15,515 nucleotides of DNA, taken from IMG/VR virus record IMGVR_UViG_2703718872_000005; one strand, 5' to 3'. Source of the stretch: a virus (taxonomy: Duplodnaviria; Heunggongvirae; Uroviricota; Caudoviricetes). The position numbers were made by a program. Shown piece after piece: positions 6,001-9,000 of this stretch (position 1 is the stretch's first letter; every line of letters begins with the position of its first letter).

Positions 6001-9000
6001 CTTCAGCCTCTTCTGCCCGCCGTTTCAGGAGGGCAAGATGCTCAATACGCTGCAGCGCAGACAGCTCAGAAAGCGTGACAGACACACCGTTATATTCAAA
6101 TTGTTCTGTTTTCAGAAACATGCTTTATCACTCCCTCAGCTTAACCCGCTGCACCATCCGTGACGGTAATTTCCGCCACCGCCGCAAACTCACCATTGCC
6201 GGTGACCACAGGGATCTGTGCTTTACCTGCCGCAACACCTTTCACCGTGATCGTGTTCCCCTTCACGGTAATGGTGGCGAAATTCTGATTCGCCGACGTG
6301 GCACGGAAGGTTTTATCCGTCGCGCCTTCCGGCTGAACGGCCACGGTCAGGGTGATATTCTGACCTTTTGCCACATTGCCCGTTGGTGGCGTCACGGTAA
6401 TACCGGTGACCGGTGTGATGTCCCCCTGATCTTCCGCCAGCGACGGACGACCGATATTGGTGATTTTTACCGTACGGGTGATCACCTCTTTGGCGGTCAC
6501 CGCTTTACCAATGGCGCTCACCCAGCCACGGAACACATCCACCGTACCGTTCGGGAAGCGAATTTTGTAGGCCCGGGTCTCACTGCTGTCAAACCAGGCA
6601 ATCAAATCGCGCTGCCCTTTCTCACCCGGCTTCCAGGCCAGCGTAAAACTGGTGTCACCGGCAGATTTCTGCCCCTGCCCGGTGGATACCCAGTCAGCAT
6701 CCTCATCATCCAGATAGTTATCATCGTAGGATTCCGCCGTCATCTCGCCGGGGGTCAGATCCTTCACCTTCGCCAGTCGCTGCCAGTCATCGTCTGACAA
6801 CGGGTTTGCATAAGCATCACCAGTGCCGGTGTACACCCACAGTGTGGTACCGGAACCTTTCACCGGCTCAAGAGGATTTGGTGTTGCCATATCGTCCTCA
6901 CATCTCGTAGGTAATTTTCCACAGGAGATCTGCCGATCCCCACATCATAAACTCATCATCCCGGCGGTAGTCATACCCCTGAAGATTCATCTTCAGCAGT
7001 AATGCACTGAGCCCGGGAACTGCCTCCAGCGCAGGAAGAATTTTTTCTTCCATCCACATATCCAGTGCCGAGTCCGGTTCTTTTGCCCTGAGAAAAACCT
7101 CAATATGCAGTGTCGCCTCCCAGGTTCCCTCATCAACGAACTCGTCAGCAGCAGACGCATCTGTCAGGTAAACAGCAACAGCAGGCAGTTCCTGTTCATC
7201 AATAAAAACCGGGCGACCGTCAAACCAGCTCACCCTCTCAGAAATATTTTCTTTCAGGGCAGACAGAACTGCCGCCCGTATTTCACGGTGTTTCATACAC
7301 CCTCCCAGTCATTTTCTTTTCAGCACCAGGCGTAACTGATGCGTCATGGCTTTCATCATCTGCGCCGGTAATTTTTCCCGGTACATCCGGTCCCGTTCAC
7401 GTTCAAAGGTTTCTGCCAGCGGTCCGGCAGTCGGAATCTTCACCACTTCGATCGGCAGACGGTGGCGTTTCGGCCTCCCTTTGCTGTCAGCGCCGGTGGA
7501 CGATGATGCCCACGGCATACGCTGCATCACATGCCAGCGTCCGTTAGCCAGCCGGGTGATAAAGGCATCCGGGATCCGTCTTTTCCCCACAATCAGCACG
7601 CTGCCACCGCCTTTCGTGACCGAACGCTCGCCTTTCTTTCGTCGCTTTCTGCGGGAAAGCAGCACGCTGGCCGTCCCCAGTTTTATGGCGGGCAGATTAC
7701 CGGTGTTGATGATGACCTTCGCATAAACCCTGTCTGCGCTGGCCCGTTGCAGGCGGATACGCTCACGGATGAGACGGCGCGGAACCGCCAGCTCCCTGGC
7801 AACCGAAGAGGCCGTTTTCGCGATGATGGACTCCGCCACACGGTTAAGTGTCGTGGCGGCAGCCCGGGGAACGGCACGGCGGTCAATTGCATCCAGATTT
7901 TTCATGGCCTGCGCCAGACCTTTTATTGCCATACTCATTCCTGTTCGACAAAAATCCGGGGTTTACCGTTGTACGTGTCATAACGGGTCACCGTCAGTGT
8001 GCGCCCCGCAAACACAACAACATCATGACGGGCCGGACGGTACCGGGCTGAAAACACCACCAGTGACAACTGGCTGCCCGAAAGCGCCCCCATCTCCGCG
8101 GACTCTTCCTCCGGCATCACGTCGTACACGACGCCGTTAATCTCCGCCTGTTTGCCCATCATCCGAACGGTCGCCACGTCCATCCGGCAACACATTCGCG
8201 TAAACAGATCAGACATTGATTTTTACCGCCACAGCGGCGCTGTTTGCAGGAGCATTTTCCCAGGCTACTCCCGCTGCCACCGCACCGTCTGCAGCCAGCT
8301 GCACAACCCCGTCCTTCAGATAAACCACCGCGCCGGACTGAATGTCGTCAGCAGACTGTTTGGGCAGCAGGAACACGCCTTCGGCAAAACCGTCACCGGC
8401 CTCACCGGCAGGAATATCGGTAATGGCCACGGCCACCATACTGCCGACCACCACCGCAGCACCGCTCAGGATGGTCTGATCTCCGGCATTCACCAGTTCA
8501 ATGGTGGTACCGTCCTGTACAAAATTTTTCGCCATAATGCTGTTTCTCCGGACAGCCCCTGTGGGGCTGTTTTTCAGGCATAAAAAAAGCCCTTTCGGGC
8601 AGTGATTGTGATAACGCGGTTATCAGGCCACCGACGAACGCACCAGCCCGCGCCAGTCAAGTGGTGCCACTCCGGCATCAATACGGATTTTTGTGGCAAT
8701 ACCGTCAGTGGTGAAACCTTCCTGCTGATCAATGTATGGCGTGTCCACACCATCCAGCCAGGCCACTTCAATGGTGTCAGTGCCCTGTGCCGCCGCCAGA
8801 TACCAGGTTTTCGGATCTGCCGCATCAAGACGCGCTTCTGCAATCACCTCAGCAAAGTTCTGGATGGGGTTAATGACACCGGCGTTTGCATCCGCCCCTT
8901 TCACACTGGCCGATTTGATGGTCTGGTTCGCCACCGTCTCCAGTGCCACCGGTACCAGCATAAAGGCCGGACGGATATTCAGGGCGCGATCGCCTTCTTT

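Follow-up and report, generated by a model that had tools for sequence, protein, structure and literature searches.

The head and tail modules of a Shiga-toxin-type Escherichia coli prophage meet at the FII-like/Z gene border

The DNA analysed here comprises 15,515 nucleotides of the tailed-phage (Caudoviricetes) record IMGVR_UViG_2703718872_000005 of IMG/VR and is called the window, at its full length, throughout. It carries the head and tail genes of a prophage whose closest public sequences come from Escherichia coli that produce Shiga toxin (STEC) or their phages, and all of its long genes lie on the minus strand. At the border between its last head gene, coding for an FII-like protein, and its first tail gene, Z, similarity to phage lambda is lost sharply, and genes of differing types lie on the two sides; the trees of the two sides conflict, Z shares an insertion with lambda, and both sides are completely linked in E. 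coli genomes. The tetranucleotide ATGA at positions 7935-7938, where the two genes overlap, is most probably (about 0.85, in our estimate) an old recombination joint between a Gifsy-2-type head and packaging module and a lambda-type tail module, inherited family-wide by prophages of the Sp/VT1-Sakai/CP-1639/1720a-02 type.

The features of the window, in the direction of transcription of its long genes, are the following.

14423-14899, minus strand: small terminase subunit of the DUF1441 type, not lambda Nu1 (Pfam PF07278, E = 5e-47; PHROG 141)
12303-14426, minus strand: large terminase, GpA family, Gifsy-2-type lineage, with ATPase and nuclease (PF05876 and PF20454)
12094-12330, minus strand: small head-tail adaptor in the W position (PHROG 118, 'head-tail adaptor', E = 4.5e-33)
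10592-12094, minus strand: portal of the lambda family, Gifsy-2-type lineage (PF05136, E = 2.8e-80)
8623-10602, minus strand: fused ClpP-like prohead protease/scaffold/major capsid protein (PF00574 and PF25209)
8209-8535, minus strand: head decoration (cement) protein, Phage_cement_2/DUF2190 (PF09956, E = 2.7e-18; PHROG 122)
7935-8216, minus strand: FII-like, predicted head-closure (stopper) protein of 93 amino acids, last gene of the head module (PF13856, 'Gifsy-2' family)
7932-7945, minus strand: the joint, where the FII-like stop codon TGA (7935-7937) overlaps the earliest possible Z start codon, ATG (7936-7938)
7309-7938, minus strand: tail completion protein Z, lambda type, 209 amino acids, first gene of the tail module (PF06763, E = 5.6e-56)
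6898-7296, minus strand: tail terminator U, a lineage of its own (PF06141, E = 2.6e-52)
6885-6915, no strand: second mosaic boundary, U/V, younger (megablast matches end and identity steps)
6141-6890, minus strand: lambda-type major tail protein V, its C-terminal domain Ig-like (PF16461 and PF02368)
685-6121, minus strand: G, T, H, M, L, K and I, the rest of the lambda-type tail operon (blastx against lambda)

Similarity to lambda stops at the start of Z

We compared the window with lambda (NC_001416) by sensitive blastn, by blastx against the lambda proteins and by a forced global alignment read in 90-nucleotide windows. All seven blastn matches lie within positions 728-7934, with identities of 78% in K/I, 76% in M/L, 94.6% in H, 75% in V-G-T, 66% in U and 68% in Z. 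The rightmost one pairs window 7899-7934 with lambda 7975-8011 (37 nucleotides, 86%). Lambda Z starts at 7977, and DNA similarity ends 2 nucleotides before its start codon; over 7935-15515, blastn gave no match to lambda. The windowed identity, put forward as a check by an earlier reading made from the sequence alone (hereafter the sequence-only reading), behaves in the same way: it is 44-84% in Z, U and V (44-69%, 46-64% and 66-84%, respectively) and falls to 32-47%, alignment noise, right of 7933.

The proteins agree with the DNA. All ten tail genes, Z-U-V-G-T-H-M-L-K-I, follow directly downstream of the head set in lambda order, as judged by blastx and Pfam, and each is the orthologue of its lambda namesake at 54-91% identity: I 56-70%, K 85%, L 77%, M 80%, H 91%, T 76%, G 67%, V 77%, U 55% and Z 54%, the last over its whole length. 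Z also matches the Minor_tail_Z profile PF06763 at full length (189.8 bits, residues 5-208 on profile positions 1-190). The closeness to lambda is uneven on this side: about 55% in Z and U, 67-85% from V to K, and 91% in H, locally 99-100% at the DNA level. Right of the joint, the lambda proteins FII, FI, E, D, C/Nu3, W and Nu1 gave no blastx match; the only matches there are weak ones, to the large terminase (24%) and the portal (21%).

Read from the sequence, two start codons are candidates for Z: the earliest ATG, at 7936-7938, and the lambda-equivalent ATG, at 7930-7932. In an alignment of nine phages across the junction, the window is of the mEp460/Fels-1/Gifsy-2 type upstream of the Z ATG and of the lambda type downstream of it. 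Counted by eye in this alignment, 24 of the first 27 nucleotides of Z match lambda, where mEp460 differs. In lambda itself, FII and Z are separated by an 11-nucleotide spacer, whereas in the window their codons overlap as ATGA. The discontinuity is real and far beyond chance, and its place at the FII-like stop and the Z start, overlapping at 7935-7938, is confirmed. The sequence-only reading had put a recombination boundary around the FII/Z junction, in an interval (7309-8216) that consists of Z (7309-7938) and the FII-like gene (7935-8216); the switch indeed falls inside it, within a few bases.

The head genes are of the Gifsy-2 type

Six head genes, for the DUF1441, GpA, portal, fused protease/capsid, DUF2190 and PF13856 proteins, stand in Gifsy-2-type order and score far above their Pfam cut-offs. 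Their products are 39-78% identical to those of Gifsy-2, Fels-1 and mEp460. The small terminase shares 62% identity with its mEp460 counterpart. The large terminase is 70% identical to that of mEp460 and 25% to lambda A (blastx 24%, E = 2e-16); the portal is 78% identical to that of mEp460 and 21% to lambda B (blastx E = 3e-5). The longest open reading frame (ORF) of the protease/capsid fusion reaches 10794, and the annotated start of its homologue is the equivalent of 10602; in E. coli 2018-166 (NZ_CP075632) RefSeq names this homologue 'ClpP-like prohead protease/major capsid protein fusion protein'.

Lambda has Nu1, the S49 protease C/Nu3, D, E, FI and a 117-amino-acid FII of family PF05354. 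The window has a DUF1441 protein for Nu1, the fused ClpP protein for C/Nu3/E, Phage_cement_2 for D and a PF13856 protein for FII; FI is absent. The right-hand genes are therefore divergent or of another architecture, as the sequence-only reading had it. Its term 'non-lambda' for the head is too strong for the terminase, portal and FII-like proteins, each of which belongs to one family with its lambda counterpart, though as a very distant member.

Head and tail genes have different histories

We compared the window gene by gene with ten phages; trees were built from 10 genomes by simple distance methods and tested with bootstrapped four-taxon quartets. A bootstrap test of splits on neighbour-joining trees was dropped, as opposing splits both scored about 1.0, and the quartets were used instead.

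The terminase and the portal fall into two deep groups with 21-25% identity between them. The first holds lambda, N15, PhiR12_2* and Vibrio phage K245; the second, the window, 1720a-02, mEp460, Fels-1, Gifsy-2 and PSTCR8lys. The tail genes lack such a deep split. In quartets, the terminase and portal join the window to mEp460, Fels-1 and Gifsy-2 in every bootstrap replicate (100%). Z goes with lambda in 85-97% of bootstraps (about 58% identity to lambda against 48% to mEp460), and V does so in 100% (76% against 57%). U, uninformative in this respect, stands as a separate lineage, with 48-58% identity to each comparator that is not of the STEC group.

Insertions in Z agree with its quartets. 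An 8-residue insertion, KKG(E/Q)R(S/A)(V/S/A)(T/L), occurs in the window, 1720a-02 and lambda only. Another, VAGDN(Q/R)xxG, is confined to mEp460, Fels-1 and Gifsy-2 and is missing from the window. Z has in addition a lineage-specific insertion of 14 residues (PWASSSTGADSKGR).

Pairs of genomes served as a control for rate. Identities (in per cent) for terminase/portal against Z/U are 87/88 against 61/70 for lambda and N15, 43/50 against 42/40 for lambda and Vibrio phage K245, and 70/78 against 48/48 for the window and mEp460; for the window and lambda they are reversed, 25/21 against 58/56. In pairs with congruent modules, the sequences thus have terminase and portal conserved at least as well as Z and U. 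Because the trees conflict and the insertions in Z follow lambda, the switch at the joint is, judging from these comparisons, a difference of history and not of rate alone.

The FII-like protein is a predicted head-closure protein

The 93-amino-acid protein encoded at 7935-8216 scores 50.9 bits with PF13856. With PF05354 (Phage_attach, the family of lambda FII) it reaches 17.3 bits, below the cut-off of 26, and by sequence it is not a member of that family. It matches a solved Gifsy-2 protein, Protein Data Bank (PDB) entry 2PP6, with E = 1.7e-13. A search of a large protein database returned only close relatives (at least 71% identity), and the alignment used for modelling was shallow. The AlphaFold model has a mean predicted local distance difference test score (pLDDT) of 74.8, with a beta core above 88; the N-terminus and one loop are disordered. 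Searched with Foldseek, this model finds 2pp6 first and then the neck protein gpFII of lambda (8k37_M and 8xow_f; probability 1.0, template modelling (TM) scores 0.59 and 0.50, respectively), followed by the stoppers of phages R4C, Pam3, T1 and Chi. We confirmed that gpFII is present in entries 8k37 and 8xow.

At the sequence level, the FII of Vibrio phage K245 bridges the two families, as it stands above both Pfam cut-offs, and lambda FII matches PF13856 weakly. A profile-profile comparison of six Gifsy-2-type with four lambda-type FII proteins aligned the 29 N-terminal columns with a probability of 24%, too weak to establish homology. The model's gpFII-like beta-sandwich fold, together with the same position in the gene order, makes the protein a predicted very distant homologue of gpFII, and the label 'FII-like', given by the sequence-only reading, is right in view of the 2PP6 match and the structural matches to gpFII. 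At 93 amino acids it is too short to hold the C-terminal loop of lambda FII. By analogy with lambda, a putative hexamer of it would sit in the virion with the adaptor on one side and the ring of the U terminator on the other, as its place in the operon (last head gene, before Z) supports.

The type of FII tracks the type of head in all ten genomes compared. At its C-terminus, the protein of the window runs two codons (Q-E) beyond the ends of its mEp460 and Fels-1 counterparts and reaches into the Z start region; speculatively, these codons may be a scar of the crossover. In databases the protein is called a 'DNA breaking-rejoining protein' (RefSeq) or an 'ATP-binding sugar transporter' (Pfam, PDB). 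These names are misleading: the modelled fold and the gene position indicate a head-closure protein.

The joint is shared by a whole prophage family

The prophage-gene region of E. coli 2018-166, a Swiss isolate, is 99.75% identical to the window over 2952-15515. Next come the phages 1720a-02, CP-1639 and VT1-Sakai at about 94%; 1720a-02 (KF030445) has 94.6% identity over 91% of the window, and CP-1639 (AJ304858) is 99% identical across the joint. All four, with Sp15/VT1-Sakai under AP000400, have the genes, the gene order and the FII-like/Z joint of the window, and the Sakai prophage so arranged bears the annotation 'prophage Sp15, lambda-like phage'. Only allelic differences set them apart from the window. 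In 1720a-02, the N-terminal half of Z and U are 76-92% identical (150-nucleotide windows), and the V and G alleles of CP-1639 and 1720a-02 differ from those of the window. The head shares 97-100% identity with that of 1720a-02; dense mismatches are found at 7600-7882 and recur in U.

Among 5,426 complete E. coli genomes, we searched for Z alone, for the FII-like and cement genes alone, and for the sequence spanning the joint. The three queries match an identical set of 533 genomes (about 10%), in 535 records each, at 757, 755 and 757 places, respectively: Z, the FII-like side and the joint are completely linked. Of the best 80 loci in IMG/VR, mostly near-identical relatives and silent on distant PF13856 genes beside non-lambda tails, each one that extends far enough has a Z of the window's family (40-100% identity) after the FII-like gene; where the latter is at least 83% identical, a full-length Z of 87-100% identity follows. 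A PF13856 gene directly abuts Z in six annotated relatives.

Diversity jumps at the joint: of the 535 records, 518 have FII-like and cement genes of at least 95% identity, and in 378 the identity of Z is 80-90%. This indicates that divergent alleles of Z circulate on a conserved head background.

Since the same joint stands in 533 E. coli genomes and in the phages of the relatives, it is not particular to the window's genome; on these counts it is ancient, family-wide and fixed, with the exchange of alleles concentrated at present on the tail side. The sequence-only reading had held that uniform identity to a single known phage across the window would speak against a joint. In form such identity is found, with NZ_CP075632 (99.75%) and, across the joint, with CP-1639 (99%), but the test is ill-posed because these relatives inherited the same joint.

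The tail is a patchwork of alleles

The description of everything from Z leftward as a lambda-type tail module holds for the type of its genes, Z to I, and fails for its unity. Megablast matches to phages with lambda-type heads (the PhiR12 series) stop at either 6915 or 6122. At the protein level, identity to lambda rises from 56% in U to 76% in V. CP-1639 is 99-100% identical to the window over 6900-9600 and 67-93% identical left of about 6900. G is 98% identical to that of PhiR12_2* and 45-47% identical to those of 1720a-02 and CP-1639. From these alignments, we take a second boundary at U/V (about 6890-6915) to be real and younger, one that complements the FII/Z joint rather than replacing it. 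There is, by the same comparisons, a further boundary at V/G, and the tail is not a single module but a patchwork of alleles.

The U/V boundary might instead be the key one: the FII-like gene, Z and U would then form an ancestral 'neck' set that goes along with a head of the Gifsy-2 type, and the import from lambda-like phages would be limited to V to I. The end of the megablast matches at 6915, the step in identity and the divergence of CP-1639 left of about 6900 all fit this, as do the separate lineage of U and the complete linkage of the FII-like gene to the window-type Z in E. coli genomes. Z speaks against it: of the two insertions, lambda-only and Gifsy-type, it bears the former alone, its quartets put it with lambda in 85-97% of bootstraps, and it matches lambda in 24 of its first 27 nucleotides, where mEp460 differs; DNA similarity to lambda moreover runs through U and Z and ends at 7934. 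We consider this explanation unlikely, if the strongest of the competitors. As both boundaries probably exist, with differing ages, it adds to an FII/Z joint more than it replaces it.

Within H, positions 3150-4350 are 99-100% identical to lambda DNA, and the flanking tail genes 66-88%. Apparently, lambda-like DNA entered the tape-measure gene by a very recent exchange. H (about 2903-5269, minus strand) also has an in-frame stop at codon 531 (window 3677-3679, ...EEAAQRR*LSAQEK...), shared with NZ_CP075632, where H is annotated as a pseudogene ('internal stop'). Because of this stop, the prophage is probably unable to make tails. In gene I (685-1358, minus strand), lambda I is matched in two separate frames (residues 1-116 and 97-223), as a frameshift or a divergent allele might cause; against the closest relative, too, identity falls to 87-90% in this region.

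Other features of the window

Runs of N occupy 1999-2038 (40 bases) and 2923-2952 (30 bases), and each stands for about 200 bases of the close relatives. Apparent deletions in L and H relative to these were rejected: they are the N runs, masked or gap sequence, which truncate the apparent frames of both genes.

Left of gene I, positions 44-740 of the plus strand hold three tandem units of about 230-240 nucleotides each, 69-73% identical. Every unit has a promoter-like stretch and, about 100 nucleotides later, a GC hairpin with a T-run, oriented against the tail operon. The closest E. coli relative has nothing collinear with window 125-517 and may thus have fewer copies of the repeat. The repeats match no Rfam family, and Rfam searches of the window and of 1-800 returned nothing meaningful. 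The units may be candidate prophage small-RNA genes. The anti-small-RNA AgvB was rejected as an explanation, since it sits elsewhere in prophages.

Plus-strand ORFs of 123-150 amino acids lie antisense within 7309-8583; they match no Pfam family and are treated as chance ORFs. A scan of 6800-8700 for promoters and terminators found sites no commoner than in shuffled sequence, and a search for cos-site patterns stayed at chance level.

Discussion

The interpretation offered by the sequence-only reading is supported, with the qualifications given above. The loss of similarity at 7935-7938 is an observation; as its cause we propose one ancient crossover, at codon 91 of the FII-like gene or just beyond it.

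Lambda heads and tails assemble by separate pathways. A crossover placed exactly between the FII and Z genes would swap a whole self-contained assembly line. In lambda, gpFII forms a hexamer under the gpW adaptor and the FII ring docks on the U ring, a contact made in part by beta-sheet augmentation (PMC10721106). The FII-U contact would be the single interface left to stay compatible, and being based on the backbone, if the lambda case is a guide, it should tolerate sequence change. With head and tail assembled separately and one FII/U interface between them, a joint at FII/Z would be viable and stable. By the same analogy, compatibility of FII with U may be what selection kept. Afterwards, the joint would have passed intact through the whole prophage family, while ordinary homologous exchange would go on mixing the tail-side alleles, within Z, at U/V, at V/G and inside H.

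Several points weigh against this account of an old FII/Z joint. The tail next to the joint is not uniformly of the lambda type, as U does not group with lambda and is about equidistant (48-58%) from the comparators. Z is only 54-58% identical to lambda, so that the donor was a distant relative of lambda or the event very old, and the bootstrap support for its grouping (85-97%) is good, not overwhelming; the trees were made from 10 genomes with simple distance methods. Nor can one crossover be distinguished from several successive replacements. The supposed FII-U compatibility, finally, is drawn from lambda.

A variant of this history, less probable still than an import at U/V, would make the FII-like protein, Z and U a neck set distinct to the Shiga-toxin E. 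coli prophage family and co-adapted, with the ATGA and the Q-E codons as the preserved scar of a non-homologous crossover. The 14-residue insertion in Z, the equidistance of U, and the Q-E codons that run into an apparent lambda-type ribosome-binding site of Z stand behind it. If true, it would offer a base-level example of a head-tail joint made and then repaired by selection.

Head and tail might also have descended together with lambda, the head genes evolving faster, so that the boundary marks a mere change of rate. The GpA terminase, the lambda-family portal and the FII-like protein are indeed very distant members of lambda's families, the overall gene order is lambda-like, and U does not conflict with the head tree. 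Yet terminase and portal are conserved at least as well as Z and U in congruent-module pairs, and the window and lambda reverse this more than two-fold; protease, scaffold, capsid and decoration proteins differ in both family and architecture, and an FI gene is missing; Z and V side with lambda rather than with mEp460, Fels-1 and Gifsy-2, in agreement with the insertions in Z. This explanation is already disfavoured, and we hold it to be improbable.

A recent crossover in the window's own genome, with a Shiga-toxin-type prophage as one partner and lambda, or a phage almost identical to it, as the other, is refuted on the available sequences as the origin of the FII/Z joint: the near-identity of H to lambda over 3150-4350 demonstrates that recent exchange does occur in the tail operon, but Z and U are only about 55-58% identical to lambda in protein and about 60% in DNA, near-identity just tail-side of the joint was not found in 90-nucleotide windows (Z 44-69%, U 46-64%), and the joint recurs in 533 complete E. 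coli genomes as well as in VT1-Sakai, CP-1639 and 1720a-02.

The old FII/Z joint, as we favour it, belongs to an arrangement that is already known and ordinary. The heads of mEp213 and LLS are very unlike lambda's and resemble that of Gifsy-2, with fused protease and coat genes, and combinations of Gifsy-2-like heads with lambda-like tails have been published (PMC12315714); for the fused protease/coat of Gifsy-2 itself, Effantin et al. 2010 is the source, as cited in PMC12315714. The Gifsy-2/Fels-1/mEp460-mEp213-cdtI-LLS group resembles the window in its fused protease/capsid, its cement protein and its PF13856 stopper, followed by Z-U-V-G-T-H-M-L-K-I. It differs in its head proteins (39-78% identity), in Z, U and V, which form a separate cluster, and in the other insertion of Z; the Z and V of the window are nearer to lambda's than to those of this group. 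Lambda, for its part, has its FII/Z border at the same position in the gene order and shares the gpFII fold, as predicted, with the window's stopper.

Beyond correct annotation, the importance of the joint is small. The corrected name of the stopper helps annotators of Shiga-toxin prophages. For phage biology, the window offers a clean textbook case of modular evolution, in which the switch lies only a few bases from the border of a gene and between two independent assembly pathways. The resulting combination of head and tail is a stable one, found in about 10% of the complete E. coli genomes searched, and the allele shuffling of this prophage family is at present concentrated on the tail side of the joint.

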